NCBI GenBank assembly: GCA_964458485.1
Contig: CAYWJA010000003.1
Span: 30,524 to 94,523, forward strand
Reading direction: 5' to 3'
Source of the DNA: an uncultured Candidatus Peribacteria bacterium
GTDB taxonomy: Bacteria; Patescibacteriota; Gracilibacteria; UM-FILTER-43-11
Length of the DNA stretch: 64,000 nt
The first letter of the stretch is position 1; each line of letters opens with the position of its first letter. The notes beneath the pieces are model-generated. The model did no database searches, was not told where the DNA came from, and saw only the letters and a program-made list of their open reading frames with translations. The translations under genes were made by a program, and so were the position numbers. This document shows, one piece after another, positions 3,728 to 25,131 of this stretch.

Positions 3728-4347
3728 TTAATAATTAAAAGTGGGCTACTCGGTTTTTCGAGTACGTTATAAGGTCTTGTATCGATTAATGTATTTGCGG
3801 AAGTATGTCCGGTTAAATCTTCACGATAGTCATAGGCATCAATTGCAGCACTTTTTCCTTCTAAAACTTCAAAAGTAACTACTGCAACGTGTATTTCTTT
3901 GTCTGTAACAGCTGTAGAGCTAGAACGCCCCAATTTCATTAAGCCATTTGTACTATCGAATGCATTAGCATATGGTGCATTAAGCGTAAAAGCTGATTTT
4001 GCAACATCAACTTCCACACCTTTTAACTTCGTTGGATCATAACTCAACCAACTTTGTACCGAAGTTATTGGCTTTTGATTTGTATTATCTAAAACAATGG
4101 TTACTTTTACTTTTTTATCTTCCTTTGTGGATTTAAGCACTAATTTCACATCTTTTGCAGCAACTTTGGCTTTTTTTAATGTTTCCTGAATGCTCTCTGT
4201 TGTAGATTTTTTTGATGTTTTTACAGTTTTGGTTATCGATTTTTTATTGTCGACTTTTGAAACTGCACTATCATCCTTACAACCAGTAAGTAAACTGGAA
4301 AGGATTAGAATGACTGCCGTTGCGATGATTATATCCTTAGGTTTCAT
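3721..4347 (-). CDS. Lipoprotein with a single cohesin-like module
   Basis: Lipobox LSSLLTGC after an N-terminal hydrophobic stretch. Module KVKVTIVLDNTNQKPITSVQSWLSYDPTKLKG..IHVAVVTFEVLEG parallels the cohesin-like module of 2528-3622. Confidence 0.7.
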   Translation of the reverse strand: MKPKDIIIATAVILILSSLLTGCKDDSAVSKVDNKKSITKTVKTSKKSTTESIQETLKKAKVAAKDVKLVLKSTKEDKKVKVTIVLDNTNQKPITSVQSWLSYDPTKLKGVEVDVAKSAFTLNAPYANAFDSTNGLMKLGRSSSTAVTDKEIHVAVVTFEVLEGKSAAIDAYDYREDLTGHTSANTLIDTRPYNVLEKPSSPLLIINQ

Positions 4348-8714: not shown

Positions 8715-11700
8715 TTACTTATTTACTTTATTAAAAAGAACTGCAACGTCGATCATGTCGACATCTCCGTCACCGTCCATGTCCGCAGCCTGTTTTTGGG
8801 CTGCTGTAGCAGTTGGTAAATTACCTCCTGCAATCTGAAAAGCTATTAATGCGTCTATTGTTGTAATTTTTCCATCACCATCTACATCACCACTTGCCAC
8901 CTTACCTATATATATAGGCATTACAGCGCTTGTCACCTTTCCTGACTTATCAACTATTTGCAAAACTAATGTATAACTTCCATCCGCCATATTTGCATCA
9001 ACTGGAATTTGAACTGGAATTTCGTAAATTTTATAATACTTTGCAGTAGTTGTTGTACCTCCTCCAGAAGAAGGACTACTTGAAGATGAGCTGGAACTAC
9101 TTGAAGAACTGCTTGAACTTGAACTAGATGAACTTGAGCTACTTGAAGAACTGGATGTCCCACTAGTCGTTCCGCTACTCGCTGTTGTTACATTATTTAC
9201 ATGTGTAGTAGCTGTATACCAAACAGCGCTTTTATCATCTTTTATTGTCGGATAAGTTTTTTTCTCTGTTCTAACAATATAAGAATTGATCTGGTCAATG
9301 TCGGCAATTGTTTCCGGTGAAGTTACTTTTACACTCAATTTAACCTGCCCACCTTTCTCGGCAGGATTACTACCAATTCTTTTTATATAATCAATTATGG
9401 CTTTTGAAGACACCTCTACGGTTAATGTGTTAACACTATTAACCTTTGTCCCATCAGGCTTTGCTATCTGTACATATAAATTAGTAGTACCAGTTGTGTC
9501 GCCTTTTGCCAAAATGCCAGAAGTTAAATATTTGTTACTTAATTTGTTGGTAGGATTATATTTCCATGTAACGTCATTGAAATTTAATTCCTTCATGGAG
9601 CCATCTAGATATTTTCCAAGAATGCGCAATTTATAAGTTGAATTTGGATGCAATGCTAATTTGCTTTCTACAGCAGGGACAACTATCACCTCCCCGCTTG
9701 AGGTTGTAACATCCTCTAGAGAAATTGTGCTATCTGCAGGTGTTAATTTTAAAAGACCTGGTGTATTTGATACTTTTGTAACTTTAATAAATGGCTGACC
9801 ATTCAACTCACTCAGTGCATCGATTAATCCATCTTTTGTTGTAGCTTTGCCATCAGGATCATTTAATATAGCATTTATTTTGTCTTTTTCTGTTGTAGCT
9901 GTAGATGTGGAAGGTAGAGTAGGAATTATTTTTGTGGTACTTCCGATTGTTATTGTTGCACCTGCAGCCTTAGATGAATTAACCATAAGGTATGCACTTT
10001 TATATGCATTACTTTTATCCATTACATCTAATTTTGAGATTGTGTCTTTATGTAAGGTTAAAATAAGGCTCGACAAAGTACTGAATGCACTTTTTTCGCA
10101 TGCTAATTTTGTAGTTGTACTTTTAGATGACTTTCCGTAACCGTTTTTAGAATCACATACATCACATAATCCTGATGTGCCACCATATCCTGTATTGCAT
10201 TGACATTTTCCCGTTGTGGTGTTGTATTGCCCATATACACATTTTAGTAACGGAGCTTTTGCTTTTACCGTAACTAAACCTTGTCTAAAATTTATAGCAT
10301 TTTTTGTAGTTGCTGAGGCAGAAGTTGTATAATATGAATTTGACGTTGATTTTTCATCGGCGTCTATAAGAATCTTTGTACCATCTGCCAATCCAGACAA
10401 AATACTTGTTTGAATTCTAAACAATAAAGCATTATCAGCCACATTTTTAGCAACCGTAGGTTTAACCTTAAGAGTTATTGTATCTTTTCCGCTTAATGTA
10501 GTAGATAAAGTAGTAACTACTGTTTCTCCACTAAATATAGTATCTGGTGAATAATTATTAACAAAGGCATATTGACTCTGAGTAGCGGTCGAAACTGGCT
10601 TAAGTTTAATCTGCAGTTCTGTTAATCCTGTTATTGCCTGAGCTGCTTTCACATCTATATATCCTTTAGTGCCAGCCTCAGCTGTATAGTCTGCAGGGAT
10701 ATAAACATTACGCAATGGTGTAGATGTATCTGTGGAAACATTTTCTGTACCACCTTTAAATGTACTTGTGATTTTTGTGACGGGAGTAGCTGTCTTGGTT
10801 TTTAATGTACAAACTGAACTTTTTAATTCATAACCATCAAGACAAGTGGCACAATCCTTTTTCGGATCAAGATTGGAACCTGTAGCACAAGCAGTACATA
10901 CTGCTACACCCTTAGTAGCCTTACAAGTTCCTCCATTTTTCTTACATACATTAGATGTGGATGAACAAGGATCTGTAATACATTTATTAGAGGAATCTAA
11001 TACATAACCTGTACTACATTTACACTGACCTGTTGATGCATCACACGAGCTATTTGTATCACTACATGTAACTCCGTAACACTTATCTACAACACATGTT
11101 GGGTAGCCCTTAAAACCTGCACTACATTTGTCACATACGGTGGTTTTAGTGCCCGCATAACCAGTATTGCATGTACACTTGCCATCACTACAAGTGCCAT
11201 AACCACAGCTGATATTTTTACATGTGTCTATGGTTATTTGTCCTGATTTAAAACTTGGCGCACCTCCTATACCCCCAATCCCTAAATCAATATAAGACGA
11301 AGAAGATGCGGAGGTTGATATTTTTTTATTACGTATATATATAGTCTGTTTGTTTTTACTCTTATTGCTAACTGATACAAAAAGCTTAAACAATACATCA
11401 TTATCTTTGAACTCATATAATTTATTAAAAGGGCCAAATTCAACCGAATATTCGCCAATGCCAACATTAATTTTTTCACTTTCTTTTTCTAATTTTGCCC
11501 CTTTCTTATCAATCTTCCATATAGCATATTCGTCCGAAGAAATTATAAATGTCAATTTAAATGCTTTAACATTTTTTAAATTCCTTCCTGCTCTAACTTC
11601 CACATAATCAAAATCACCTGGTGCTGCAATATAATTTGGTATATAAAACATATCATCTATCTTTGATGTATCATTTGTGCCAAGTTGAAATTTATCGTAG

Positions 11701-12035
11701 CTACCAGTAGTTTTCCCAACAATTTGTGAGCCTCCTCTGGTTTGACTAGCTGTCGGATCTGTCGGTATAATTGGTGCAACACCTCTAGTATTTCTGGCAG
11801 CATCTATGGCTCTATCTTGCCCCTCTGCCGATTGTGGTCCACCAGCCCCCCCTTCCTCTTCCACTACGATTGCAGGAGCCCCTCTTCTACCTTCTCCAAT
11901 AGTTGCCTTAAACAAACTCGGATTCTTATAAGCCACAATGCTCAATGCAGTTACTACAACCACAACGAATACGGTTAGAATATTGCGCCATAGGTGGCTT
12001 GTTTTTTTGATTTCTGTTTGGTTTTCGTTTTCCAT
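8715..12035 (-). CDS. Giant surface protein (1106 aa): TM anchor, EGF-like Cys-rich region, cohesin-like modules, poly-Ser, C-terminal two-repeat dockerin
   Basis: TM ILTVFVVVVVTALSIVA followed by NPSLFKA. Cys-rich residues ~272-409 (CGYGTCSDGKCTCNTGYAG..QCKCSTGYVLD). 26-residue Ser run. C-terminus GDVDGDGKITTIDALIAF..ADMDGDGDVDMIDVAVLF matches the type-I dockerin duplicated Ca-binding pattern. Confidence 0.85.
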   Translation of the reverse strand: MENENQTEIKKTSHLWRNILTVFVVVVVTALSIVAYKNPSLFKATIGEGRRGAPAIVVEEEGGAGGPQSAEGQDRAIDAARNTRGVAPIIPTDPTASQTRGGSQIVGKTTGSYDKFQLGTNDTSKIDDMFYIPNYIAAPGDFDYVEVRAGRNLKNVKAFKLTFIISSDEYAIWKIDKKGAKLEKESEKINVGIGEYSVEFGPFNKLYEFKDNDVLFKLFVSVSNKSKNKQTIYIRNKKISTSASSSSYIDLGIGGIGGAPSFKSGQITIDTCKNISCGYGTCSDGKCTCNTGYAGTKTTVCDKCSAGFKGYPTCVVDKCYGVTCSDTNSSCDASTGQCKCSTGYVLDSSNKCITDPCSSTSNVCKKNGGTCKATKGVAVCTACATGSNLDPKKDCATCLDGYELKSSVCTLKTKTATPVTKITSTFKGGTENVSTDTSTPLRNVYIPADYTAEAGTKGYIDVKAAQAITGLTELQIKLKPVSTATQSQYAFVNNYSPDTIFSGETVVTTLSTTLSGKDTITLKVKPTVAKNVADNALLFRIQTSILSGLADGTKILIDADEKSTSNSYYTTSASATTKNAINFRQGLVTVKAKAPLLKCVYGQYNTTTGKCQCNTGYGGTSGLCDVCDSKNGYGKSSKSTTTKLACEKSAFSTLSSLILTLHKDTISKLDVMDKSNAYKSAYLMVNSSKAAGATITIGSTTKIIPTLPSTSTATTEKDKINAILNDPDGKATTKDGLIDALSELNGQPFIKVTKVSNTPGLLKLTPADSTISLEDVTTSSGEVIVVPAVESKLALHPNSTYKLRILGKYLDGSMKELNFNDVTWKYNPTNKLSNKYLTSGILAKGDTTGTTNLYVQIAKPDGTKVNSVNTLTVEVSSKAIIDYIKRIGSNPAEKGGQVKLSVKVTSPETIADIDQINSYIVRTEKKTYPTIKDDKSAVWYTATTHVNNVTTASSGTTSGTSSSSSSSSSSSSSSSSSSSSSSSSSSSPSSGGGTTTTAKYYKIYEIPVQIPVDANMADGSYTLVLQIVDKSGKVTSAVMPIYIGKVASGDVDGDGKITTIDALIAFQIAGGNLPTATAAQKQAADMDGDGDVDMIDVAVLFNKVNK

Positions 12036-12044: not shown

Positions 12045-12108
12045 AGGAGTCAGGAGTCAGGAGTCAGAAATCAGTACTGATTTCTTATTCCTTATTCCTT
12101 ATTCCTTA
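12045..12108. repeat. Tandem-repeat-armed hairpin (AGGAGTC x3 / TTATTCC x3)
   Basis: AGGAGTCAGGAGTCAGGAGTCAGAAATCAGTACTGATTTCTTATTCCTTATTCCTTATTCCTTA. Pairing needs G-U wobbles. Confidence 0.75.
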
Positions 12109-13113
12109 AGTTAATAAGTTCATAGCTAAAAGGATTCCGAGGCTCATAGATAGGGATTCCTCTAGTAAATTAAAATTAATATGTCTTACAATCGGTAAAT
12201 GTTTCCATAATCGAGAAAAATATTGAAACCGATTTTTGTGTGGTTCTGACTCCTTTAACATTTGCATAAGTTCTTTGTGCACATGGCTCCTACTCCAATG
12301 ATTTGTATATTTTTCTATTAAGATGTAACGAACTGTGGAGAATGTAATTAATGTAATGAAGTAAAGAGAAAGTGCCACTGCAAAAATTCCTGCAAAGAAG
12401 TAAACTATCATTGATCCGGTTAATGCAAAAAACATTGCCGTAATTATTTGTGCAGGATTTATGTAATCTTCTTTTGTTTTAAAATAAATTTTTGTAAGAC
12501 TATGTATTAAATAAATAATACTTGCTGTAACTGGTATCCAGATACTAGTTGATTTTGAAAGCAGGCTAAAATTTAATATATTCCACGATCCGTAAAGCAT
12601 TTCTGGAACCTTAACCATTAGGTTTAATCCCCAGAATGTAAAAAAGAATAAAGCTATTTGAGCAACAACAAGTATTGCACCACGATGATGAATTCTTTCG
12701 TTAACATCATAAATTTTATGTAATTCATCTTCAGCTGCACCAACGCTAAGTTCACCTCGGTTAAAACGATCCACAAGCTTCTTGTGAAATAGATGAATCT
12801 TTTTTTGTTTAAACTGAATTCTCGCACTTGGATACAAAAGTATTAATTCAACTGCAATAGCAAGAACTACGATGGAAATTAATACACTTCCACCTGACAT
12901 TTGCATTAAGCTGTTAAACACGATTGAAAAAATCTTAGCAACTTCTGCTTTGAACCCAGTGTAAACCAAAGGACTGACCTGTGCGCCGGTTAGCACACTT
13001 TCTGTAGCACTGTTGTGCAATTCTACACCAGATGTATTGCCTTGCATAAAGGCCAGGTAAACACTTAGTGCAAATAGTGTTAGTGTTGCTGTTATTAAAC
13101 TTAATTTTTTCAT
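12106..13113 (-). CDS. Polytopic membrane protein, probably a divergent YidC/Oxa1-type insertase
   Basis: Signal/TM at the N-terminus. The pattern GSVLISIVVLAIAVELILLYPSARIQFKQKK..ELHKIYDVNERIHHRGAILVVAQIALFFFTFWGL resembles the YidC TM2, coiled hairpin and TM3 layout. About 5 TM segments. Assignment is by eye only. Confidence 0.45.
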   Translation of the reverse strand: MKKLSLITATLTLFALSVYLAFMQGNTSGVELHNSATESVLTGAQVSPLVYTGFKAEVAKIFSIVFNSLMQMSGGSVLISIVVLAIAVELILLYPSARIQFKQKKIHLFHKKLVDRFNRGELSVGAAEDELHKIYDVNERIHHRGAILVVAQIALFFFTFWGLNLMVKVPEMLYGSWNILNFSLLSKSTSIWIPVTASIIYLIHSLTKIYFKTKEDYINPAQIITAMFFALTGSMIVYFFAGIFAVALSLYFITLITFSTVRYILIEKYTNHWSRSHVHKELMQMLKESEPHKNRFQYFSRLWKHLPIVRHINFNLLEESLSMSLGILLAMNLLT

Positions 13114-13297
13114 TTTTATTTAATTTTTATTGCTCAATTACTCGATTTCTCAATTGCTCAATTTAAATCTCATAACAAATCAACAAATAAGGAAATCTTA
13201 ATATTATAGCAAATTTTCTTATAATGAGCAATTCCTTGGGGTTGACACGTTATTTGGTTTATTGCGCATAAAAAACTGAAAATCAGACTAGCGTAAA

Positions 13298-13326
13298 TTG
13301 ACACTTTTGCAGATTTTGTGTAAAAA
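13298..13326 (+). promoter_or_regulatory. Sigma70-like promoter candidate for the VirB6-like/pilin operon
   Basis: TTGACA, 17 nt, then TAAAAA. It would place MITE copy a in the 5' leader. Confidence 0.35.
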
Positions 13327-13407
13327 ATTTGTCAAGTTTGGTGTTTTTTCGTTAATCCTGGTTTGTAGTTGTGGTGAGTTTGTATGAAGACGGAGTGTAT
13401 TAACCCT

Positions 13408-13595
13408 GTTTGTCATCCCGCACTTGATGCGGGATCCAGATAATGAAGTGATGGTTATTTTACTAATACACTAATTATCCTATTTACTGATATTGCGAAA
13501 ATATTCGCATATTCAGATTGTCTGATTATAAGTAAATAAGTGATAATATAATTCATTAATCATATGGATCCCCAGTCAAGCTGAGGATGACAAAC
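13408..13595. mobile_element. MITE-like element, copy a (188 bp)
   Basis: Left end GTTTGTCATCCCGCACTTGATGCGGGATCC. Right end GGATCCCCAGTCAAGCTGAGGATGACAAAC. AT-rich core homologous to copy e. Confidence 0.8.
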
Positions 13596-13622
13596 GGTAG
13601 CAATATCATTCATACCATTAAG

Positions 13623-13643
13623 TCCGGGATGACAAATAGTGAA
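13623..13643. mobile_element. Solo right-end fragment of the MITE-like family
   Basis: TCCGGGATGACAAATAGTGAA shares GGGATGACAAATAGTGAA with the right end of copy c (18714-18734). Confidence 0.5.
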
Positions 13644-13737
13644 GCGATACTCCATTCAAAATAGGATGAAAATTATAGAGACAAATTTGCTTTTCCTCCC
13701 TGTTCATGCTATAATAAAGGGATATATTTGTATCTAT

Positions 13738-16341
13738 ATGCAAAGTAAAACAAAAAACATATTTAAAAAAATTGCGTTTTCACTGCTTTTTGCGGGAATA
13801 TTATGTATTCCAAATTTTGTAATGGCTGCTAGTGATCCTGGTGTTAAAAAATTAACAATTACACCAGATAAGCCAGGGCCTGGAGAATCAACAACCTTTG
13901 TGGCTACTTATGCAAACGAAGGCAATGCAAAATCCGGCAAGGTTGAACTGACAATCGATTACAATGAAAATATTTTTGAAAAAATTTCATTAAATGATTC
14001 AAAAAATTGTATCGACACAAAATTTACTGTTTATTGTACATTCGACAAATTACCCGCAAATTATACAAATACCATTAGCTTCAAGGCATCCGTAAAGTCA
14101 GCCGTAATAGTTGGTACTAAGTCTTTAGCAATTGCGCGAATAGATGATGTAAATAATCCAAATGACAATATCAAAAATAATTCCGCAAGTGCCACAACTA
14201 CTATTGCCCCAATGTCCAGCGGGAAAATATCTCAGGCGGGTCTCCCGGCGGCACTTGGATTAACAAAAAGTGTTAAATTAGAAAAGCCTTCTAAAAATCA
14301 GGGAGTTGCTGTTTTTGATGTAACAAATAATAAAAACTGGAAAACAAGCGGTCTTTTTACAACCGGTTTAAAGTTTATGATACGGGGTAAGGAAGCTTTG
14401 GCATGGACACTGGGTATTAGTGACGGTGGTTTTCATAATCCTGCGATAAAAAGCAGTTATTTAAAAGTTCTTACAATTGTTAATAGCTTGTTTATAATCG
14501 GACTTCTTGCGATCGCTGGCATGTGGATGTTTAGTATTTTGATTCCGAGAGCGTATTTAAAGCGAGTCGTATTAATTTATGGAATGGCTGTAATTTTTGT
14601 GAATTTCGCACTGCCGATGAATCAGCTTTTGATAGATACAACAAATCTTCTGCAAAAGACATTTATGGATGGTGTAAAGATTACAAATATTGTGGAAATT
14701 CCGAGTTATAACGATAAAAAAGCTGTTGGTTATCAGAATGAAACTGGTTTTCTTAAAAAAGCGGATACCAGCAAGCTTACATTCAATTTGAGTGATCCTA
14801 AAGTTGCGGCAAGTAGTACGTCGACAAAATCGACAGTAGCCGGTGCAGGTGCAAAAACTAAAACTACTACACCCACAATTACTGTCAAACCGACTAGTAT
14901 TAGTGTTGGGAAAATTACCCAGGATCCTTCAAAAACAAGTTTTATCGGTAATATAAAAAGTTCTAAAACAGCTGAGACAATTTCTTTATCTACTTATGGT
15001 AATGACCCGGAAATTAAATTAAACGCCAGCCAGAATGTTGAACTTATCAATTCAAATAAATTTAACCCAGACCAGGAACATTCAATTTTTGCTTTTGTAA
15101 TGATGATTCTTACGAGCCTTGCCTACTTTGGAATGGCATTAGTTCTAATATTACGGATCGTGATCTTATGGGCACTAATGATTGTATCTCCGGCACTATT
15201 CCTTCTAATAATCTTCCGTGCAACCCGTAGTTATTTTGTAAATTGGCTTGGGCTTTATGCAAGATGGTTACTAATTGGCCCACTAATGGCACTTGGAATT
15301 GCGGTTGTTGTGAACATATGGAAAACAACAGGACTGCCTATCACTAGTTCATATTCCGGAGGGCAGTTTGGTGTGTTTACTAATATCGGATTCTTTTTGC
15401 CTGGCAAAGATACAGCTAATACACTGAGTACAACGGGGCAAATGATGGAATATATTTTGTTTTTGATAATGCTATATCTGCCGATAATATTTGCATTTAT
15501 GCTAACCAGGCAAAAAACATGGGCTGGAGCACTTTCTACTATTATTAATAAAAAAGGTGCTGTGCAAAAGCCAATGGAGGATCCAATGGGAGGATCCAAT
15601 GGGAGGATCCAATCGGGGCAAGAAGGTAAAGAAGAATCTAAAGCTACATCTTTCACTCAAGATATTAAAGGATTTTTGAATGATAAATTTACAAAAACCA
15701 CTGCAACAGCAATACCTGGTAATATGAGAGGTGGTGATGTTACATCAGGTACCATTGCTACAGGAGAATCCAAACCTAAGATAGAAAATGCTGGACATTT
15801 TTTACCGGAAAATTTAGAAAAATCTGATATGAAGAGTATGGTTAATCTTGCATCAGGTGATAAAGGATCTCGCAATTCACATCAAAAAGCTATTGAAAAG
15901 TTAGCAAAGCCACAAAGTATTATAGACCCACAGGAAAGAAAAAAGGTTAGTGCGGTCAAAGAGGAAATTGGCAAACGTGCAGAACAAGGTGATGTGGAGG
16001 CTATACGTGTAATGGGGGAAATTAGTCAAGCTGAACAAAGTCCAGTAGGTGGATCCAATCGGGAATCCGTTGGGGACCCAGTTGGGGTAAGTACCGAAAT
16101 TGTAAAAGAAAAGGAGATAATTAAGGAAGAAAAACCCGAAAAAGATACGGCACAAACGTCAGGTGGTGCCGTAGGGGACGCACATGTGCGTCCTGATGAT
16201 ATGAAAAAAATAAATAAACCAAATGATGATGAAGATTCTGACGAAGATGCTGTAGATCCGCAACACGATGCGGATACAGATAAGGAGGACGAAGATGAAT
16301 CTGATGAGATAAAAGAGGAAAGGAAAAGTCGTCGCAAGTAG
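13738..16341 (+). CDS. Polytopic membrane protein, VirB6/TrbL-like candidate, with N-terminal beta-sandwich domain and long acidic C-terminal tail
   Basis: The ORF track starts at GTG 13639, inside a MITE fragment. ATG 13738 gives a normal signal peptide (MQSKTKNIFKKIAFSLLFAGILCIPNFVMAAS). About 6 further TM helices. It sits directly upstream of three pilin-module genes. The tail contains repeat-derived segments. Confidence 0.6.
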   Translation: MQSKTKNIFKKIAFSLLFAGILCIPNFVMAASDPGVKKLTITPDKPGPGESTTFVATYANEGNAKSGKVELTIDYNENIFEKISLNDSKNCIDTKFTVYCTFDKLPANYTNTISFKASVKSAVIVGTKSLAIARIDDVNNPNDNIKNNSASATTTIAPMSSGKISQAGLPAALGLTKSVKLEKPSKNQGVAVFDVTNNKNWKTSGLFTTGLKFMIRGKEALAWTLGISDGGFHNPAIKSSYLKVLTIVNSLFIIGLLAIAGMWMFSILIPRAYLKRVVLIYGMAVIFVNFALPMNQLLIDTTNLLQKTFMDGVKITNIVEIPSYNDKKAVGYQNETGFLKKADTSKLTFNLSDPKVAASSTSTKSTVAGAGAKTKTTTPTITVKPTSISVGKITQDPSKTSFIGNIKSSKTAETISLSTYGNDPEIKLNASQNVELINSNKFNPDQEHSIFAFVMMILTSLAYFGMALVLILRIVILWALMIVSPALFLLIIFRATRSYFVNWLGLYARWLLIGPLMALGIAVVVNIWKTTGLPITSSYSGGQFGVFTNIGFFLPGKDTANTLSTTGQMMEYILFLIMLYLPIIFAFMLTRQKTWAGALSTIINKKGAVQKPMEDPMGGSNGRIQSGQEGKEESKATSFTQDIKGFLNDKFTKTTATAIPGNMRGGDVTSGTIATGESKPKIENAGHFLPENLEKSDMKSMVNLASGDKGSRNSHQKAIEKLAKPQSIIDPQERKKVSAVKEEIGKRAEQGDVEAIRVMGEISQAEQSPVGGSNRESVGDPVGVSTEIVKEKEIIKEEKPEKDTAQTSGGAVGDAHVRPDDMKKINKPNDDEDSDEDAVDPQHDADTDKEDEDESDEIKEERKSRRK
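15571..15618. repeat. GGATCCAAT-type repeat arm inside the VirB6-like CDS
   Basis: CCAATGGAGGATCCAATGGGAGGATCCAATGGGAGGATCCAATCGGGG, translated PMEDPMGGSNGRIQSG. Confidence 0.8.
16042..16088. repeat. Second GGATCCAAT-type repeat arm inside the VirB6-like CDS (same orientation)
   Basis: CCAGTAGGTGGATCCAATCGGGAATCCGTTGGGGACCCAGTTGGGG, translated PVGGSNRESVGDPVG. Confidence 0.75.
16171..16193. repeat. GTAGGGGACGCA-CATG-TGCGTCC palindrome, in frame in the VirB6-like CDS
   Basis: Variant of the GGACGCAGATCTGCGTCC family with a CATG centre. Encodes VGDAHVRP. Confidence 0.8.
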
Positions 16342-16360
16342 CCTTATTTCGCATTTACAC

Positions 16361-16470
16361 TTTGTCATCCCGGACTTGCCTGCCCCGCCATAGGCGTGGG
16401 ATCCGGGATCCACCGATTGCGGGCAAACCATGGATCCTGATCCCGATAAAATCGGGACAGGATGACAAAA
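16361..16470. mobile_element. MITE-like element, short copy b (110 bp)
   Basis: TTTGTCATCCCGGACTTGCC...CCCGATAAAATCGGGACAGGATGACAAAA with three internal GGATCC sites. Lies between the VirB6-like stop and the first pilin start. Confidence 0.75.
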
Positions 16471-16477
16471 AACAAAA

Positions 16478-17143
16478 ATGATAAAAGCAATATTCAAAAA
16501 ATCACTGAGCATTGTAATACTTGCAGGACTTCTATTAAGTCCGGTAATGGCTTATACAGCAGGTTCGACAACAGGTGGCACTGTTATTAAAAATGCAACA
16601 ACAGCAAGTGGCACTGCAACAACAGCAAAAAAGGCTGTGGTAACTAAAACTCAGACTGCGTTGGGAGAAGTATCGAATTTTGGTGAATTAATTTCATTGA
16701 TTTGGAATTATGGTTCACAAATTATTATTGCATTTTCTGTTTTCTTTATAATCCTCGGAGCCTTGTTCTATATAACATCTGCGGGGAATGAAGAAAAAAT
16801 CAATCAGGGCAAACAAATGGTATTCGGATCACTTATTGCTGTTATAATTGTGATGTTTTCCGGAGTTTTAATGCGTACTTTGCATAAAACATCTCAAGGC
16901 ACCACCGGGAATTTAACCGATGTGCCAACTGTAATTAATAATGCCACTAATATATTGGTTGGGTTCGTGGCGGCATTCTCGGTTTTAATGTTTATTTACG
17001 CTGGCATTAATTATATGCTTGCCCGCGGTGATGCAGATAAAATTAATAAAGCACATCGGGCTTTACGATACGCAGTACTTGGGCTTATTATTGGAGTACT
17101 TGCTTACGGAATAGTAAATTCTGTAATCGCCTATCTTATTTAG
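16478..17143 (+). CDS. Protein with two tandem VirB2/TrbC-like (T4SS pilin) modules
   Basis: Signal peptide, then two copies of TM helix + loop + TM helix: ..FFIILGALFYITSAGNEEKINQGKQMVFGSLIAVIIV.. and ..FSVLMFIYAGINYMLARGDADKINKAHRALRYAVLGLIIGVL.. Confidence 0.7.
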   Translation: MIKAIFKKSLSIVILAGLLLSPVMAYTAGSTTGGTVIKNATTASGTATTAKKAVVTKTQTALGEVSNFGELISLIWNYGSQIIIAFSVFFIILGALFYITSAGNEEKINQGKQMVFGSLIAVIIVMFSGVLMRTLHKTSQGTTGNLTDVPTVINNATNILVGFVAAFSVLMFIYAGINYMLARGDADKINKAHRALRYAVLGLIIGVLAYGIVNSVIAYLI

Positions 17144-17217
17144 TTTTTATTTTTTAATTTTTAATTTTTATTGAACTACTAATTAGTTAGCCAAATAAAA
17201 ACTAAAAACTAAAAATT
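17142..17217. repeat. AT-rich tandem-repeat-armed hairpin between pilin genes
   Basis: AGTTTTTATTTTTTAATTTTTAATTTTTATT..CTAATTAG..AATAAAAACTAAAAACTAAAAATT. Confidence 0.7.
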
Positions 17218-17535
17218 ATGAGTAAATTAATCCCCTGTTCAGACGGTACAATGGCTGACCCCTCAATTGGCTGCGTAAGCGCGCCAAGTAGTGTGGTGAA
17301 TCCGGATTCAAGTGCGGTTGAGCTTATATTAAAAATTTCCGGAATTCTTATGACAGTCGCTGCTGCAATTGCGGTTATGTTACTAATTTATGGAGGCATT
17401 ATTTATGCAATGGCCGCAGGTGAGGAAGAAAAAATTAAAAAAGCAAAACGTACTATGATTTGGAGTGTAATTGGTTTAGTGGTAGCGATTCTTGCGAAAT
17501 ATGGAGTGGAATATATTTTGGGGGCTATTGTATGA
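17218..17535 (+). CDS. VirB2/TrbC-like T4SS pilin (105 aa)
   Basis: C-terminal module VAAAIAVMLLIYGGIIYAMAAGEEEKIKKAKRTMIWSVIGLVVAIL has the same pattern as the neighbouring genes. Confidence 0.7.
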   Translation: MSKLIPCSDGTMADPSIGCVSAPSSVVNPDSSAVELILKISGILMTVAAAIAVMLLIYGGIIYAMAAGEEEKIKKAKRTMIWSVIGLVVAILAKYGVEYILGAIV

Positions 17536-17565
17536 GAAGCTGTTTTGACTTATGGATAGGTTTAT

Positions 17566-17720
17566 ATTTCTGATTTCTGATTTTTGATTTCAGATTCGAT
17601 TTAGTATTTAGTATTTTTACATTTACTATCTGATTATTTAATTAATATGGTTAGTAAATGATAAATATCAGAATCCTAAATCTAGATTCGAATCTGAAAT
17701 CTGAGTTCTGAAATCTGAGA
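17566..17720. repeat. ~155-bp imperfect palindrome (TCTGATTTC units)
   Basis: ATTTCTGATTTCTGATTTTTGATTTCAGATTCGA... ...TCGAATCTGAAATCTGAGTTCTGAAATCTGAGA. Confidence 0.8.
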
Positions 17721-17853
17721 TAATCATTTTTTAGCTATAAAACAATAAAATTATAAAACGTCTACAAAAAGTTATCATTTCCCCCTTGTGCTAAAAAATG
17801 ATTCTTGTATACTTTTTTTGAACAATAAACACTGAAATCAACACTTAATTATC

Positions 17854-18540
17854 ATGAAAAAACTCACCAAATTAACAAGCTTGATCTTCTCGATTGCCTT
17901 TTTTGGCTTTCTTATGGCGCCATCTGCTTTAGCGGTTGAATGCGACACAGATGGAGATGGCTATATTACTATATCCGACAAAATAATGAAGGAGGTTGTT
18001 CCAACTGCAACATCTTACAAAGCTGATGGGAATTTTACCGCAGCGCAATGGGCTAACTTCTATAAATTATATAAAGAGGGTAAAAAGACCACAGAAGAAA
18101 CCTGCAATAGCCTTAACTTTAAAAAGGGTGCTGAGCCATCTAGGTGTGACGCGACTATAGTAAGTGCAACAAGTGGCGTATACGACACATCTAAGGTCAC
18201 CTCAAGTATCTCCGGTAGCTCAGTCTATCCGGGCGCACTAGATAAGGCTGGTAATGGAATTGATGAAGACTGTGATGGAAAAGATGGAAAGCTCTTGGCT
18301 GGAACCGGAACAAAAAAAGATCTGGGGGGATTGGTTGATAAAACAATTTCACTTCTTAGTAAATTAGTAGTTGTTGTTTCTATATTGATTATGATTTGGG
18401 GTGGTGTATTATACTCCACAGCCGCTGGGGATGAAGCAAAAACTGCTAAAGCAAGAAAGGCAATTATCGGAGCGGTTATCGGTTTAATCGTTGGACTACT
18501 CGCGCCATCAATCGTTACTTGGGTAGCGTCCAACATCTAG
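17854..18540 (+). CDS. Chimeric pilin: signal peptide + Cys/Asp-rich metal-binding-like domain + VirB2/TrbC-like module
   Basis: Signal ..LMAPSALA. ECDTDGDGYITISD is a Ca-binding/dockerin-like loop. PGALDKAGNGIDEDCDGKDG is a MopE-type motif as I recall it. C-terminus is VSILIMIWGGVLYSTAAGDEAKTAKARKAIIGAVIGLIVGLL. Confidence 0.7.
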   Translation: MKKLTKLTSLIFSIAFFGFLMAPSALAVECDTDGDGYITISDKIMKEVVPTATSYKADGNFTAAQWANFYKLYKEGKKTTEETCNSLNFKKGAEPSRCDATIVSATSGVYDTSKVTSSISGSSVYPGALDKAGNGIDEDCDGKDGKLLAGTGTKKDLGGLVDKTISLLSKLVVVVSILIMIWGGVLYSTAAGDEAKTAKARKAIIGAVIGLIVGLLAPSIVTWVASNI

Positions 18541-18570: not shown

Positions 18571-18615
18571 AAAAAGGCCTGTCGAAATATTTGAAGAATG
18601 ACGGGCCTTTTTTAT
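18571..18615. terminator. Bidirectional intrinsic terminator between the third pilin gene and argH
   Basis: AAAAAGGCCTGTC..loop..GACGGGCCTTTTTT. A-tract and T-tract flank the stem. Confidence 0.7.
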
Positions 18616-18643: not shown

Positions 18644-18734
18644 TTTTTGTCATTTCGACCCTGTGGAGAAATCCCTTCGATCAACCGAAAGGGCAAGGGA
18701 TCCCTCCATGCTAGTCGGGATGACAAATAGTGAA
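18644..18734. mobile_element. MITE-like element, short divergent copy c
   Basis: TTTTTGTCATTTCGACC...GGGATCCCTCCATGCTAGTCGGGATGACAAATAGTGAA. Overlaps the 3' end of argH. Confidence 0.65.
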
Positions 18735-20029
18735 TCAGAAATGCGAAATTTAGAGATTTTTTTCTCCAAAATTTTCAACCCCAAATTCCCAGTTGCACCC
18801 AAATGTGTTTTGGATTTAATATTCTTCACAACATTCTGTTTTTTTATACCCTTCAATTTTAATGCAACCTGCCTGTAAGCATCACGGAAGGGTGTGCCAT
18901 TTTTAACCATATCGTTGACCATATCAGTGGCAAAAATTTCCGGATCAAAGGCTGCCTGAAGCTGCTTCGTATTTGGCTTTAAATGGTTAAAAAGGAGCTC
19001 TGTTATATTAATGCTCGAAAGTACAATGTCAAATGAATCTATTAATGCTTTCTTGGTTATTTTTAAATCTTTATTATAACCGGAAATTAAATTCTGACTG
19101 ACTGACTGAACTTTGAATTGCTCTCCTGCAACCACACTAACATTCGCCCTTAGAACCTCCATAATATCCAAATTTTTCTTTTGAGGCATAATACTGGAAC
19201 CAGTAGTGAGCTGATCATTTACTTTGAAAAAATTAAATTCTTTAGTTGTAAATAAAATTAAATCATTAGCTATTTTACCTAGTGTTAGCATAGTCTGATT
19301 AAGTACACCTATGGTAAAACTCTCAATCTTACCTCTGCTATTTTGACAATAAAGCGAGTTAATCTGTATTTTGGCAAAACCTAATTTTTTTGTTGTATAT
19401 TCCCTATCGATAGGTAGACTTGTGCCAAATCCTGCAGCAGATCCAAGTGGATTTTGATCGTTTAGATTGTAGGCGGATGAGATTGTCTGATAATCATCTA
19501 ATAACGATTCCACAAAACTACCTGCCCACTGCCCAACGCTGGATGGCATCGCCTGCTGCATATGTGTGTATCCCGGTATAGGTAGAAACTCATGTTTTTT
19601 AGCAAATTTTAAAATCGTCTTAGCTAGTTTAATCGTAGCTAATTGGATTATCTTAAGTTGGTGCTTACTAAACAATCTGATGGCGACCAAAATCTGATCA
19701 TTTCTAGATCTGCCCATATGCACTTTTTTACCAACTGCACCTAACTTTTTTGTTAAATAATTTTCAATAGCAGTATGGCAATCCTCATTTATTTGCTTAA
19801 GTTTAAATTTGCCTTTCTTGTTTAAAGTTAAAACTTCTTTTAATCCTTTTATGAGAGATTCTGCCTCTTTTTTGGTTAACAACTTTACTTTCGCGAGCAT
19901 TTCAACGTGTGCAATTGACGCCTGGATGTCGTATGGAAGTAAAATTTTATCCTGTGCAAGATTTACATCAATAATATATTGATTCACCATTGGGTGCATT
20001 TTTTGATAGGTTTCCCATAATTTACCCAT
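18650..20029 (-). CDS. argH: Argininosuccinate lyase
   Basis: Motifs GRSRNDQ, GYTHMQQAMP and SSIMPQKKNLD. Length 459 aa. The last ~26 codons and the stop lie inside a MITE-like element. Confidence 0.9.
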   Translation of the reverse strand: MGKLWETYQKMHPMVNQYIIDVNLAQDKILLPYDIQASIAHVEMLAKVKLLTKKEAESLIKGLKEVLTLNKKGKFKLKQINEDCHTAIENYLTKKLGAVGKKVHMGRSRNDQILVAIRLFSKHQLKIIQLATIKLAKTILKFAKKHEFLPIPGYTHMQQAMPSSVGQWAGSFVESLLDDYQTISSAYNLNDQNPLGSAAGFGTSLPIDREYTTKKLGFAKIQINSLYCQNSRGKIESFTIGVLNQTMLTLGKIANDLILFTTKEFNFFKVNDQLTTGSSIMPQKKNLDIMEVLRANVSVVAGEQFKVQSVSQNLISGYNKDLKITKKALIDSFDIVLSSINITELLFNHLKPNTKQLQAAFDPEIFATDMVNDMVKNGTPFRDAYRQVALKLKGIKKQNVVKNIKSKTHLGATGNLGLKILEKKISKFRISDSLFVIPTSMEGSLALSVDRRDFSTGSK

Positions 20030-20897
20030 TTTCTGATTGGTTAGTGGCTAAATAACAAGCAATTTTCCCCTTGTGAATGTCCTTTTTAGGAAAAATAATA
20101 AAAGAATTTTGATCTATTGTAATTTTCTGGCCATTATCTTGTGCAATTATTGTTTTATTATCCAAAAAATCAAAATTGTTATAATCAGAAGTAAATTTAA
20201 ATTGATCCGATTTTGGCACTATATGATCGTAAATTATCAGATGCTTTGGATTAGACTGATTAGATATAGGAATATTTAAAAAACATGAACCAATTTTTTG
20301 TAAAAACTGCTGAATTTTTTTTAAAATAATTATTTCTTTACCATTTTCTCTATACCATCCTGTTTCATAAGTAATACCAATACCCCCATGTGCATCTACA
20401 AAAGTATCTATTGATGAGGTAAGGTCTTCAGTTTTAAAATCTGACGCTTTTGAGACCATATAACCTACATCAAATATTGACGCTAAATCTAAATGATCTT
20501 TTGTCGATTTTGTGTAAATAAAAGGTACTGAAGGTTTAAGTGTGGAATGAATATCTAATAAAAAATCTGCCTTTTTTAAAATCGGAGCAATACTTAATGC
20601 TCTTTCTTCTTCATAATTAAGATCTGACTCCTGTTTCTTTTTAAGTAAATCAAAGTTAAACCCAAATTGTCTGTTTAAATCGCAGTCGATGTATCTTTTT
20701 TCCGCTACATAAGCTGGAGGATTTCCAACAATAATGTAAATTTCTCCGTTAATATCCTCTTTTTGCATAATTAATAACAAAATTTCTATTATATGCGCAC
20801 CTATCCTCTCGTTACCATGTACGCTACCAGTAATAACCACGGTTGGACCTGGATTTTTTCCTTTAAAATAATATGTATAAGAAGGTAATTTAGTCAT
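20022..20897 (-). CDS. Succinylglutamate desuccinylase/aspartoacylase (AstE/AspA, M14-like) family deacylase
   Basis: N-terminal VVITGSVHGNERIG zinc-ligand motif and later LLDIHST. The ORF overlaps argH by 8 nt and ends 1 nt after argB, so it is inside the arg operon. Confidence 0.65.
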   Translation of the reverse strand: MTKLPSYTYYFKGKNPGPTVVITGSVHGNERIGAHIIEILLLIMQKEDINGEIYIIVGNPPAYVAEKRYIDCDLNRQFGFNFDLLKKKQESDLNYEEERALSIAPILKKADFLLDIHSTLKPSVPFIYTKSTKDHLDLASIFDVGYMVSKASDFKTEDLTSSIDTFVDAHGGIGITYETGWYRENGKEIIILKKIQQFLQKIGSCFLNIPISNQSNPKHLIIYDHIVPKSDQFKFTSDYNNFDFLDNKTIIAQDNGQKITIDQNSFIIFPKKDIHKGKIACYLATNQSENG

Positions 20898-20898
20898 G

Positions 20899-21753
20899 TC
20901 ATTCTTTTAAATAAGTATTTTTCTCATTTTGATTGGTAAACATAGTGCCAACGCCTTTTTGTGTAAGTACCTCGTTAAGCAAGCTATGTTCCGAAAGACC
21001 ATTTAAAATATGAATACGTTTTACATTGTTTTTAACCGCATGAATGCAGTTTTGAATTTTTACAACCATTCCGTTCTTTGCGATTTTTTTATTAATTAAA
21101 TCCATTCCTTCCTTTGGCGTGAGTACACTAATGAGCTTTGAGCCTTTATAGACACCATCTGTTTTTGTAAATAAGATGAGCTTTTCAGCCTGCATAGCTA
21201 TCGCAATTTCAGTTGCAATCGTATCTGCATTAATGTTTAAAATTGTTCCATTGTTTGAAACTGCTAAGGGGGAAATAATAGGTAAATAACCTTTGCTGAT
21301 CAGATCCGAAAGTATTTGTGGATTAACATTATTGATATCGCCTACATAACCATAATCCACTTTTTTAATTGCCCTCTTCTTAACATCAAGCAAATTTCCA
21401 TCAAGTCCACTAACCCTTATGCCTTTTAGGCCAATTTGCTTCATAATACTGAGAATTTCGAGGTTCAAAGTGCCACCATAAAGCATTTTTACTATTTCCA
21501 GATCTTTTTTAGTTGTCACCCTTCTCCCCTTAATTTTGATAGGGCTATGGCCAAGTTTAAAAGCAAGATCATCAGCCTGTGTACCACCTCCGTGCACTAA
21601 GATTATATGAATACCAAAATCATGAATTGATTTAATATCTTTTAGTATATTTTTTAAATTTCCCTTTGAATTAATCACCTCACCTCCAACTTTTAAAACA
21701 AAGACCTTGTTTTTGAATTTAGAGAGGTAAAATTGTTTCTGAAAATTATTCAT
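20899..21753 (-). CDS. argB: Acetylglutamate (N-acylglutamate) kinase
   Basis: VLKVGGEVI and ILVHGGGTQ amino-acid-kinase motifs. 284 aa. Operon context. Confidence 0.9.
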   Translation of the reverse strand: MNNFQKQFYLSKFKNKVFVLKVGGEVINSKGNLKNILKDIKSIHDFGIHIILVHGGGTQADDLAFKLGHSPIKIKGRRVTTKKDLEIVKMLYGGTLNLEILSIMKQIGLKGIRVSGLDGNLLDVKKRAIKKVDYGYVGDINNVNPQILSDLISKGYLPIISPLAVSNNGTILNINADTIATEIAIAMQAEKLILFTKTDGVYKGSKLISVLTPKEGMDLINKKIAKNGMVVKIQNCIHAVKNNVKRIHILNGLSEHSLLNEVLTQKGVGTMFTNQNEKNTYLKE

Positions 21754-22904
21754 GGCAACTGTTTTATTGATTTAGTAAAAATTTCTAAAAACTGATTTAG
21801 CTCTTCCCACGAAACATTAAGTGGTGGCATGATTCTGATTATATTTTTTATTGAAGAGCTTCCAATTATTAATCCATTCTTCAGACATAATTTAGGTAAA
21901 TCCTGTGCAGGTTTTTTAAATTCAATTCCGATCAACAAACCCTTTCCGTGTATTTGGTTAATTTGTGGATGAGACTTGAGCCTCTTCTTCAGATATTCTC
22001 CTTTTTTCTCTACTTCAAAATCATTTTCAAGCAACATTTTAATTGTCGCCAAGCCTGCTGCACAAACCACCAAACCGCCACCAAAAGTCGTTGCATGTTC
22101 ACCAACCCCAATTGTTTTAGCTATATCTTCTTTGACTAAAACTGCAGATAGAGGTAGGCCAGATGCTATGCCTTTGGCAGTGGTTATAACATCCGGAATT
22201 ACACCAACTGACTGGCAAAACCAAAATGTACCGGTTCTACCAAGTCCGGTTTGTACTTCATCAAAAATGAGTAAAATATTTTTTTCTTCACAAAATTCTG
22301 CAAGCTTTTTATAAAATTTGGTTTCTGCCATTTTAATCCCTCCAATACTTTGAATGGGTTCACAAATAACAGCGGCTACATCTTTGTTGTATACTTTTTT
22401 AATGCTTTCCATATCACCTAGATCAGCAAAACAAGTATATTCATCTAAATTCGGTTCAAATTGATGATATGAAGACAAGCCTGTTACACCTAATGCCGAA
22501 ATACTTCTGCCGTGAAATGAATTTTTAAAAGCAATGATATGTTTTTTGCCGGTTTTTTTTCGTGCTATTTTCAGAGCTGTTTCGTTTGCTTCTGAGCCTG
22601 AATTTGCAAAATAGACCTGGTAAGGCTCCTTTAATGTGCCAGCTAGCTTATCTGCAAGTTGGATAGCGGGATTCGTCTTAAAAATATTGGAATAAAATAT
22701 TAATTTTTCCGATTGCTCCTTTATTGCTTTTACTACCTGTGGTGGGCAGTGGCCAAGTAAACAAACTGCATGCCCACCGTAAAAATCTAAATATTTTTTA
22801 CTTTTACTATCCCAGACGCTACTACCATCCCCTTTTACAATCTCTATAGGATACTGCGCATAAGTTTGAATTAATGCTGATAATTTGGATGATTTTAAAT
22901 TCAT
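21750..22904 (-). CDS. argD: Acetylornithine/succinylornithine aminotransferase (class III)
   Basis: SGSEANETALKIARK, DEVQTGLGRTG and TTAKGIASGLP (PLP lysine). 4-nt overlaps with both neighbours. Confidence 0.9.
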   Translation of the reverse strand: MNLKSSKLSALIQTYAQYPIEIVKGDGSSVWDSKSKKYLDFYGGHAVCLLGHCPPQVVKAIKEQSEKLIFYSNIFKTNPAIQLADKLAGTLKEPYQVYFANSGSEANETALKIARKKTGKKHIIAFKNSFHGRSISALGVTGLSSYHQFEPNLDEYTCFADLGDMESIKKVYNKDVAAVICEPIQSIGGIKMAETKFYKKLAEFCEEKNILLIFDEVQTGLGRTGTFWFCQSVGVIPDVITTAKGIASGLPLSAVLVKEDIAKTIGVGEHATTFGGGLVVCAAGLATIKMLLENDFEVEKKGEYLKKRLKSHPQINQIHGKGLLIGIEFKKPAQDLPKLCLKNGLIIGSSSIKNIIRIMPPLNVSWEELNQFLEIFTKSIKQLP

Positions 22905-23911
22905 GGGTAAATTGGGCTAAATAAATTCAATCCGGTGGACTGACTAAGGCCGAACATTAGGTTCATATTCTGAATAGCATTGCCAGCCGCGCCTTTTATT
23001 AAATTGTCGATTACGGCCTGAATTACAACTTTTTGATTAATAATTTGTATGCTGATATCACAAAAATTTGAGCCAATTACAGAAACAAGTTCTACTTCTG
23101 ATTTCATACGTATAAATGGGAAATCTTGATATGCCTTTTTAAATAAATTATCTAAATCTGATTGATTTATCTTTTTCTTTAAATCAATAAAAGCAGTTAA
23201 ATGTATACCCCTGGTAAATGGTCCACTAGTTGGCACAAAATTAATATTCGATTCAGACAATTTTAAACTTTGTATAATTTCCGGAATATGCTGATGAGAT
23301 CCGATTTTATAACTCTTCATATTATGTCCACGTATGGGGTGATGAGTATTTTCTTTGGCTGTTTTGCCGGAACCACTAGAGCCAGTGACAGCTAAAATAT
23401 CTACATGTTTAATAAAATTTGTAATTGGCAATAATACAAGTTGGGCTGCTATTGCAAAACATCCGGGATTAGCAATGTTATCTGATTTTTCAATAAATTT
23501 TTTCTGGTATTCCGGTAAACCATATGCAAATTTACCTATTAAATTCTGACTTTGATGACAATTGCCGTAATATTTTTTAAATAATGAGATATCTTTAATC
23601 CTGAAATCACCGGAAAGATCAATTATTTTAGTTTTTCCGATAAGTTCTGGAATAATTTTTTGAGACTGCAAATTGGGAAGTGCTAAAAATACCAAGTCAC
23701 TTTCATTTGCAACTATTGCCGGATCAGTATTTGTTAATTCAATATTGCAAACACCTTCTAAATGTGGATATACGTTGTTAATTGTTTCACCTGAATTATT
23801 TTTAGATATAAGGTATTTAAATTCGACATTTGGATGTCCGGCAAGAAGTCTTATTAGCTCAAGTCCTGTATAGCCCGTAGCGCCGATGATTGAGATACTT
23901 ATTTTAGACAT
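22901..23911 (-). CDS. argC: N-acyl-gamma-glutamyl-phosphate reductase
   Basis: IIGATGYTGLELIRLL Rossmann motif and NPGCFAIA active-site Cys. 336 aa. Confidence 0.9.
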   Translation of the reverse strand: MSKISISIIGATGYTGLELIRLLAGHPNVEFKYLISKNNSGETINNVYPHLEGVCNIELTNTDPAIVANESDLVFLALPNLQSQKIIPELIGKTKIIDLSGDFRIKDISLFKKYYGNCHQSQNLIGKFAYGLPEYQKKFIEKSDNIANPGCFAIAAQLVLLPITNFIKHVDILAVTGSSGSGKTAKENTHHPIRGHNMKSYKIGSHQHIPEIIQSLKLSESNINFVPTSGPFTRGIHLTAFIDLKKKINQSDLDNLFKKAYQDFPFIRMKSEVELVSVIGSNFCDISIQIINQKVVIQAVIDNLIKGAAGNAIQNMNLMFGLSQSTGLNLFSPIYP

Positions 23912-23919
23912 AATTTTAT

Positions 23920-23994
23920 AGTCTCATGTGCGAGTGCGAGTCTCAAGTAGCACATTAATAAACCTTGAGACTTGAGACATGCACTTGAGACTTA
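23920..23994. repeat. CTTGAGAC-family hairpin overlapping the 3' end of CDS 23955-25007
   Basis: AGTCTCATGTGCGAGTGCGAGTCTCAAG..loop..CTTGAGACTTGAGACATGCACTTGAGACT. Confidence 0.8.
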
Positions 23995-25007: not shown

Positions 25008-25050
25008 GATTTTGATGCTTAGTGCTGTTTTTGTGCTTTTTGTAAGTGCT

Positions 25051-25124
25051 GTAGGCTTGTAGGATGTAGGCTTGTAGGATGTTCTATTATAATAAATTCC
25101 TACATCCTACGTCCTACAAGCCTA
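25051..25124. repeat. GTAGGCTTGTAGG-family hairpin downstream of argF
   Basis: GTAGGCTTGTAGGATGTAGGCTTGTAGGATGTTCTATTATAATAAATTCCTACATCCTACGTCCTACAAGCCTA. Confidence 0.85.
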
Positions 25125-25131
25125 ATTAGTG

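Follow-up and report, generated by a model that had tools for sequence, protein, structure and literature searches.

What becomes of VirB2-like pilins whose genes stand together with no motor gene beside them? The question is raised by four co-directional genes at positions 13738-18540 (+) of a stretch of contig CAYWJA010000003.1, from an uncultured Candidatus Peribacteria bacterium; this stretch, 64,000 nucleotides (nt) in all, is referred to here as the window. A VirB6-like gene (13738-16341, 867 amino acids (aa)) is followed by pil1, which encodes a 'double pilin' (16478-17143, 221 aa), pil2, which encodes a short single-hairpin pilin (17218-17535, 105 aa) and pil3, which encodes an ectodomain-bearing pilin (17854-18540, 228 aa). 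We consider it probable that this block is the membrane-platform (VirB6) and VirB2-like pilin module of a dispersed type IV secretion system (T4SS) of the Patescibacteria type, monoderm-derived and with its VirB4 encoded elsewhere. An earlier reading of the letters alone (the sequence-only reading) had suggested a surface filament coupled to an adjoining adhesin island rather than a DNA-transfer machine.

Pilin and VirB6 families in the block

All three predicted pilins exceed the gathering cut-off of PF18895 (T4SS_pilin, 26.6 bits). The scores are 55.6 bits for pil1, over two stretches, 48.6 bits for pil2 and 43.6 bits for pil3, which bears out the earlier claim of three pilin genes, the first with two modules. 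With PF04956 (TrbC/VirB2, cut-off 27.9 bits) pil2 alone gave a match, below the threshold (21.2 bits, E 3.5e-4), and both pil1 and pil2 are above the cut-off of NCBIfam NF045849 (Mbov_0395 pilin-like conjugal transfer protein). The helix-loop-helix motif first noticed in the letters was recovered in four copies across pil1-pil3, with a slightly broader consensus: helix, (A/S)(A/R)G(D/N/E)(E/A)-x-K-x-x-K(A/G)(K/H/R), helix. Pairwise identity among these four hairpins is 20-35%.

The three proteins differ in what surrounds the hairpin. In pil1 a signal peptide and a T/A-rich linker precede two VirB2-like helix-loop-helix hairpins (aa ~60-136 and ~145-221), and the AlphaFold2 model has four long helices (68-100, 105-136, 145-181, 186-220) arranged as these two hairpins. 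Its 141 homologues, which come from Peregrinibacteria or unclassified Patescibacteria, are 60-70% identical across the two-hairpin core. A single hairpin is found in pil2, after an N-terminal ectodomain tail with a Cys-x11-Cys pattern (LIPCxDGxxADxxxGC). There is no hydrophobic signal peptide; orthologues carry a short ...AYAQ leader that is absent from the window copy, and an in-frame stop codon lies upstream of the gene. Finally, pil3 has a signal peptide, a conserved Cys-rich ectodomain of ~125 aa and a C-terminal pilin hairpin (aa 156-228). The ectodomain contains the motifs DxDGDGYI, which resembles a calcium loop, and NGIDExCDG, which is MopE-like (Cu-binding_MopE, 22.4 bits, below cut-off), and Cys and Asp residues are invariant in the alignment of pil3 orthologues.

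The start of the VirB6-like gene was taken as the ATG at 13738, instead of the GTG at 13639 where the mechanically called open reading frame (ORF) begins, because a normal signal peptide then results and the start agrees with those of homologues. The protein scores 26.9 bits against PF04610 (TrbL/VirB6; residues 482-573), above the gathering cut-off of 25.9 bits, and is polytopic with at least five transmembrane (TM) helices. The VirB6-like assignment made from the letters is thus upheld, though at a borderline score, while the accompanying count of seven TM helices was approximate: we counted a signal peptide and about 5-7 membrane helices. PF04610 is precomputed for most of the 86 homologues of this protein.

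The AlphaFold2 model of the VirB6-like protein (mean predicted local distance difference test score 63.7) begins with a confidently modelled CARDB/cohesin-like beta-sandwich (aa 34-155, window 13837-14202). Two blocks of long membrane helices follow (aa 205-309 and 446-610, the second bearing the TrbL match), separated by a poorly predicted, variable and beta-rich extracellular insert (aa 330-445). After the second block come a helical domain on the cytoplasmic side (aa 690-767) and an acidic tail that is disordered (aa 770-867). This layout is that of an 'extended VirB6' as reviewed in PMC12857230. Foldseek searches with the model returned matches to the beta-sandwich only (CARDB, cohesin and adhesin modules), with a target-normalised TM-score of 0.76-0.82 to CARDB 3idu. 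In two related loci (L005, L006) the sandwich is swapped for a short Cys-rich segment; the outward-facing part of VirB6 therefore differs between species.

Conservation of the block and the search for a motor

Where the source of a VirB6-like homologue is named, it is Peregrinibacteria or Patescibacteria, apart from a single protein that bears the label Pacearchaeota. Among GTDB genomes, scanned at one per species and not including that of the window, 21 loci were recovered at 35-49% identity, all labelled as Peregrinibacteria, Peribacteria, Gracilibacteria or Patescibacteria metagenome-assembled genomes. When these were annotated with the window's own proteins, the order VirB6-pil1-pil2-pil3 was seen in 18 of the 21; two of the others were cut by contig ends and one had no pil2 call. 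The same order is found in L005 and L006 (JGI contigs of 461 kb and 205 kb, the larger being Ga0209450_10000001) and in three metagenome loci. In all these loci the ORFs of the block are intact (35-70% identity), and many residues are invariant in the alignments. No copy of the block was found among IMG/VR viral contigs. Moreover, the chromosomal position beside uvrB, which is likewise a conserved neighbour, is fixed in relatives. We read the block as chromosomal, vertically inherited and fixed in layout in Peregrinibacteria. In the most divergent locus (L058, 2903-7001) the interval from uvrB to the YidC-like gene described below lacks the VirB6 and pilin genes, and in their place stand two unrelated ORFs for Cys-rich secreted or lipoprotein-like proteins (376 and 380 aa).

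VirB4 is the sole universal component of T4SSs and is required to pull pilin out of the membrane. The statement that no T4SS ATPase gene lies near the block proved true of the whole window, in which every ORF of at least 150 aa was scanned with Pfam; no relaxase was found in the same scan. Nor was a T4SS ATPase found in the 6.8 kb past the left end of the window, or within 10 kb in ~40 related loci. The large ORFs left unexplained in the loci that carry the block code for surface proteins (EGF, DUF4215 or Ig-like) or have housekeeping roles, and T4SS ATPases are not among them. Searches (tblastn) with VirB4, TraC-like and PrgI queries from the locus described next gave zero matches at E<=1 in the window and related loci.

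A link to a motor was found in a distant lineage (locus L037, GroEL 47% identical). Here the genes are laid out as VirB4 <- TraC-like <- PrgI <- TrbL_3 VirB6 <-|-> two-module pilin -> pilin -> pilin. TraC-like/TrsD and PrgI/VirB3 genes thus stand next to VirB4 and VirB6 in this locus, an arrangement seen neither in the window nor in its relatives. Over its whole length the two-module pilin aligns with the pil1 profile (59.8 bits), and a conserved helix segment of the TrbL_3 VirB6 aligns with the VirB6-like protein of the window (hhalign, E 0.0013). L037 therefore associates the double-pilin family directly with a complete Patescibacteria T4SS. No ATPase was found near the pilin genes in four further loci (L035, L036, L038, L039).

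The double pilin had been thought unusual for a pilin subunit; within its family it is not, as the homologues of pil1, the two-module relative beside VirB4 in L037 and the longer polypeptides described next show. A profile search across 1.84 billion cluster representatives (E<=0.001) recovered 33,940 relatives, many of the top ones multi-module. By Pfam, polypeptides of 280-820 aa carry 3-8 tandem PF18895 modules; P0209-P0221 have 4-8 each, up to 8 in a protein of 820 aa, and some relatives, P0210 for one (51.2 bits), pass the PF04956 cut-off. Two- and three-module ORFs are continuous in the contigs examined. Judged by these family matches, tandem fusion of 2-8 hairpins is a common feature of PF18895 proteins, and because polypeptides of 3-8 modules are common, the two-module pil1 is one member of a widespread family habit. 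We found no description of such 'poly-pilins' in the literature searched, where PF18895 itself is named in only two papers. A metagenome scan with divergent double pilins as queries returned no loci.

The divergent neighbours and flanking sequence

Upstream of the block, on the opposite strand, lies a gene for a YidC/Oxa1-like membrane protein of 335 aa with ~5 TM helices (12106-13113, -). It covers nearly the full length of two YidC profiles at scores below their cut-offs, namely 60KD_IMP (PF02096; 24.6 bits against a cut-off of 35, positions 2-162 of 163) and TIGR03592 (23.9 bits against 84.3, positions 2-190 of 191). An hhalign comparison with E. coli YidC (E 0.043) aligned the TM2-C1-TM3 region, and a PDB profile search with the family profile gave no match. 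In the low-confidence hhalign alignment an invariant Glu of the family (E89) falls at the position of the groove arginine of YidC (FIVRGIMYP region); if this is real, the hydrophilic groove would bear the opposite charge.

The YidC-like gene is followed on the same strand by genes for surface proteins. The nearest product is a secreted or anchored protein of 1106 aa with a C-terminal type I dockerin (8715-12035, -; Dockerin_1 42 bits, E 1.1e-10), and the next is a giant protein of 1408 aa with an N-terminal TM anchor (4438-8664, -). Beyond these are a cohesin protein of 208 aa with the lipobox LLTGC (3721-4347, -) and a cohesin-FN3 protein of 364 aa (2528-3622, -); the two Cohesin matches score 32.3 and 34.3 bits, with E values of 3e-8 and 1e-7. 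By Pfam these neighbours qualify as cohesin and type I dockerin proteins, and a cohesin-dockerin pair is predicted. The 364-aa protein and a 787-aa protein (156-2519, -) share a C-terminal QP(K/Q)(S/N)GP, hydrophobic helix and Arg/Lys tail, which looks like a sorting signal unlike LPXTG; the 364-aa protein has the version QPQNGP. We also asked whether the ectodomain of pil3 could be a dockerin and bind the cohesins encoded nearby. This was unsupported: only the 10-residue DxDGDG loop aligns with the dockerin of the window, and there is no Dockerin_1 match.

The sequence-only reading was right that the block diverges from the YidC-like gene and the cohesin-dockerin locus, and the linkage is conserved in relatives. 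In 14 of 15 loci with sufficient flanking sequence the gene upstream of VirB6, in divergent orientation, is the YidC-like one. A search that started from the YidC-like protein agrees: among 11 metagenome loci that include the upstream sequence, all but L058 have VirB6 as the divergent gene beside it (10 of 11). In related loci the YidC-like gene is followed by orthologues of the 1106-aa and 1408-aa proteins. Of 13 orthologues of the former, 9 have a recognisable Dockerin_1 domain, phmmer orthologues of the latter occur in nearly all loci with enough flank, and both cohesin genes are also present in L011, L012 and L029. However, such synteny is weak ground for the functional coupling to the adhesins that had been proposed, because uvrB is equally conserved as a neighbour and some of the shared gene order follows from general collinearity.

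The intergenic region between the YidC-like and VirB6-like genes (13114-13737, 624 bp) has no conserved ORF and presumably holds the promoters of both, although promoter-like matches within it are no commoner than in shuffled sequence. The spacers between the pilin genes are filled by long AT-rich inverted repeats, I3 between pil1 and pil2 (17139-17213, +; 21 nt, 90% complementary) and I1 between pil2 and pil3 (17565-17722; 61 nt, 74% complementary). These may act as mRNA hairpins or attenuators, and could determine how strongly the three pilins are expressed relative to one another. A GC-containing hairpin with A and T runs on both sides (18571-18612; inverted repeat I8, 13 nt, 92% complementary) lies between pil3 and a convergent argH-like gene, and is likely a bidirectional terminator that closes the operon. 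This hairpin was the only product of promoter and terminator scans of the block, in which an Rfam search matched no family.

The argH-like gene belongs to an arginine-biosynthesis operon (argH-, argB-, argD-, argC-, argF- and argG-like; 18650-27337, -) that separates pil3 from uvrB. It is a lineage-specific insertion, because relatives usually have uvrB within ~2.5 kb after pil3, and the gene set is unusually rich for a Patescibacterium. Further along, the cumulative GC skew reaches its minimum at ~32000-34500 and gene orientation flips from minus to plus at ~34.4 kb. This resembles the strand switch of a replication origin, but dnaA is absent; the block is ~16-20 kb away.

Competing readings and known systems

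The dispersal of T4SS genes is documented for Patescibacteria (PMC12102498). In that survey, by Quinonero-Coronel et al. (2025), VirB4 was present in 2417 of 3035 assemblies (~80%), arrays of 2-11 divergent VirB2-like pilins were described, and pilin genes lay near virB4 in 1135 of the 1948 assemblies with both, being distant in ~40%. The systems derive from the monoderm MPF-FATA class and usually lack a relaxase. For the GTDB class Gracilibacteria, TrsD and VirB3 were not near virB4 and VirB6 was undetected (PMC12102498). The surveyed assemblies were drawn from the NCBI 'Patescibacteria group' (PMC12102498), outside which NCBI taxonomy places Candidatus Peregrinibacteriota; in the accessible part of the survey's genome table the names Peregrinibacteria and Peribacteria are absent and rows of class Gracilibacteria almost absent. 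NCBI files our loci under the names Peregrinibacteria, Peribacteria, Gracilibacteria and Patescibacteria group.

The block supplies a VirB6 homologue for the class Gracilibacteria. In this lineage VirB6 exists, heads the pilin operon and stands apart from the ATPase, a variant of the known system. The VirB4, TraC-like/TrsD and PrgI/VirB3 genes most probably lie elsewhere in the genome. Epibiotic growth of Saccharibacteria requires this system. For Southlakia growing on its host, the T4SS genes and the pilin array among them are essential (PMC10633639), as is VirB6 (PMC12102498). This essential role and the general lack of relaxases are in line with the earlier suggestion that DNA transfer is not the function of the block.

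From established knowledge of T4SSs we infer how a pilus could be assembled. Each pilin would enter the membrane as a helical hairpin, N-out/C-out, its basic loop facing the cytoplasm; where a signal peptide is lacking, as in pil2, the YidC-like protein is a plausible insertase. The inserted subunits would then gather round the VirB6-like platform, from which VirB4 would extract and stack them into a short pilus, or a conduit through the wall. In such a structure pil1, a covalent pair of hairpins, and pil3, with its Cys-rich calcium-loop ectodomain, could be specialised subunits, for example one serving as base or adaptor and the other as tip or in adhesion. Attachment to the host cell at the same episymbiotic interface might come from the cohesin/dockerin proteins and the Ig-like giant proteins.

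Several observations weigh against this. Neither VirB4, VirD4, VirB11, T2SSE-type ATPase, PrgI nor TraC-like families were found by Pfam among the window ORFs of at least 150 aa, and VirB4, TraC-like and PrgI genes were unseen in ~489 kb of partly redundant related loci. The VirB6 assignment depends on a borderline Pfam score. The beta-sandwich dominates the Foldseek hits and the membrane core has no independent match; a PDB sequence-profile search and a tblastn search against plasmids gave no match to the VirB6-like protein either. Similarly, the double-pilin model retrieved no solved pilin in Foldseek, only non-significant helical bundles, and a PDB profile search with the pil2 profile matched no solved pilin. 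Collinearity, rather than function, may be what keeps the YidC-like gene and the adhesin genes beside the block. Finally, to our knowledge a pilus of this type has never been visualised in any Patescibacterium.

One rival reading, which we regard as unlikely, is a membrane complex that extrudes no pilus. Here the VirB2-like hairpins would be permanent anchors or platform subunits, the double pilin being platform-like and pil3 a hairpin-anchored ectodomain, while the VirB6-like scaffold and the YidC-like insertase would organise or anchor the giant cohesin/dockerin proteins. A precedent is found in L036 (9042-15907, Logan SRR22387757_98447), where two pilins of three modules each (308 and 325 aa) precede a protein of 1619 aa whose N-terminal membrane segment is a T4SS_pilin hairpin and whose remainder is PKD repeats. 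Further PKD and FN3 proteins are encoded downstream, with no ATPase within 10 kb. The architecture of pil3 follows the same logic of ectodomain plus hairpin. Moreover, polypeptides of 3-8 hairpins fit poorly with the one-hairpin subunit of a classical helical pilus, and the core of the double pilin is strongly conserved, unlike fast-evolving exposed major pilins. However, the sequences belong to a pilin family, pil2 is remotely TrbC/VirB2-like, the relatives in L037 sit within a full VirB4 locus and the literature treats such arrays as pilus subunits (PMC10633639, PMC12857230).

An orphan surface filament independent of VirB4, which is close to what the sequence-only reading proposed, seems improbable to us. 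It would assemble spontaneously, by YidC or by another motor of PilB/PilT type, and be welded to the adhesin island. The lack of a nearby T4SS ATPase in related loci and the conserved linkage to the YidC-like gene and to dockerin and Ig-like proteins are consistent with it. So is L033 (7064-10498, JGI Ga0272440_1003053), in which two genes for T2SSE-family (PilB/PilT/VirB11-type) ATPases of 392 and 569 aa stand in a row and their end is overlapped, over 29 nt, by the gene of a divergent double pilin (P0256, 190 aa); VirB4 and PilC genes are absent from this 12.7 kb contig. The locus hints that some VirB2-like double pilins may use a different motor, and the pilin there occupies the usual slot of a platform gene, which also suits a complex without a filament. 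However, this association is a single locus from a distant lineage, VirB4 is universal in T4SSs and needed to extract pilins, and most Patescibacteria have VirB4 within a documented pattern of dispersal.

It is equally doubtful that the VirB2-like hairpins and the VirB6-like protein form a distinct, non-VirB4 envelope structure that displays or anchors cohesin-dockerin adhesins for host contact. Such a structure would combine single, double and ectodomain-bearing hairpin subunits with dedicated YidC-like insertion and either no motor or a non-T4SS motor of PilB/PilT type, an arrangement to which we likewise give little credence; poly-pilins of 2-8 modules would then be pre-linked segments of it. 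That the block is a functionless leftover, in decay, of an old T4SS locus or of a conjugative element once integrated, as the missing ATPase, coupling-protein and relaxase genes might imply, is very improbable and largely refuted by its conservation, with four intact ORFs, many invariant residues, an order kept among genomes with 35-50% VirB6 identity, a fixed position beside uvrB and no adjoining integrase or mobile-element genes.

On the preferred reading, as a module of a dispersed T4SS, the block extends a system that, with its pilin arrays, is essential to the epibiotic lifestyle in the one species tested. A whole lineage, the Peregrinibacteria/Peribacteria, has a VirB6 platform and three specialised pilins uncoupled from the motor genes and retained beside a YidC-like protein and cohesin/dockerin adhesins. 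The locus thereby offers testable handles on the identity of base, shaft and tip subunits, on insertion of pilins by a YidC paralogue and on adhesin docking.

Among known systems, the VirB2/TrbC/TraA pilins of diderms share with the block two hydrophobic helices and a short basic loop, along with the remote PF04956 match of pil2. They differ in that the block pilins fall below the cut-off of that family, match no solved pilin by sequence or fold and show no evident long cleaved leader or cyclisation signal. Furthermore, we know of no tandem-module fusions among these classical pilins. The rvh T4SS of Rickettsiales is also scattered in chromosomal islands, with VirB2 and VirB6 paralogues and 'extended' VirB6 proteins that have large hydrophilic domains (PMC2653234; PMC12857230). 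However, the rvh system is diderm, has an outer-membrane core complex and both VirB4 and VirD4, and belongs to an unrelated lineage, so the likeness is an analogy only. Conjugative T4SSs of monoderms (MPF-FATA; pCF10, integrative and conjugative elements (ICEs), Mycoplasma ICE) resemble the block in that pil1 and pil2 match NF045849 and outer-membrane components are lacking. These systems are mobile, and besides VirB4 they encode a relaxase and a coupling protein; pilin arrays are generally absent from them. By contrast, no relaxase, coupling protein (VirD4/TcpA), integrase or mobile-element gene was found among the window ORFs.

A close counterpart is the T4SS of Patescibacteria (Southlakia epibionticum SEML1_0006-0019; PMC12102498). 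Both have PF18895 pilins in an array of divergent paralogues (20-35% identity here, ~25% reported) and a VirB6 homologue, in a monoderm, at a chromosomal locus and with no relaxase or coupling protein nearby. The block differs in that its VirB6 and pilins are apart from VirB4, TraC-like/TrsD and PrgI, in its fixed orthologous trio with a two-hairpin fusion and an ectodomain-bearing pilin, and in its pairing with a YidC-like gene and cohesin/dockerin surface proteins. L037 differs from the window in the partners of VirB6: there the gene belongs to the ATPase operon and diverges from the pilins, whereas the VirB6 of the window stands first in the pilin operon and diverges from the YidC-like gene. 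In both, VirB6 adjoins a pilin array that opens with a two-module pilin and continues with single-module pilins.

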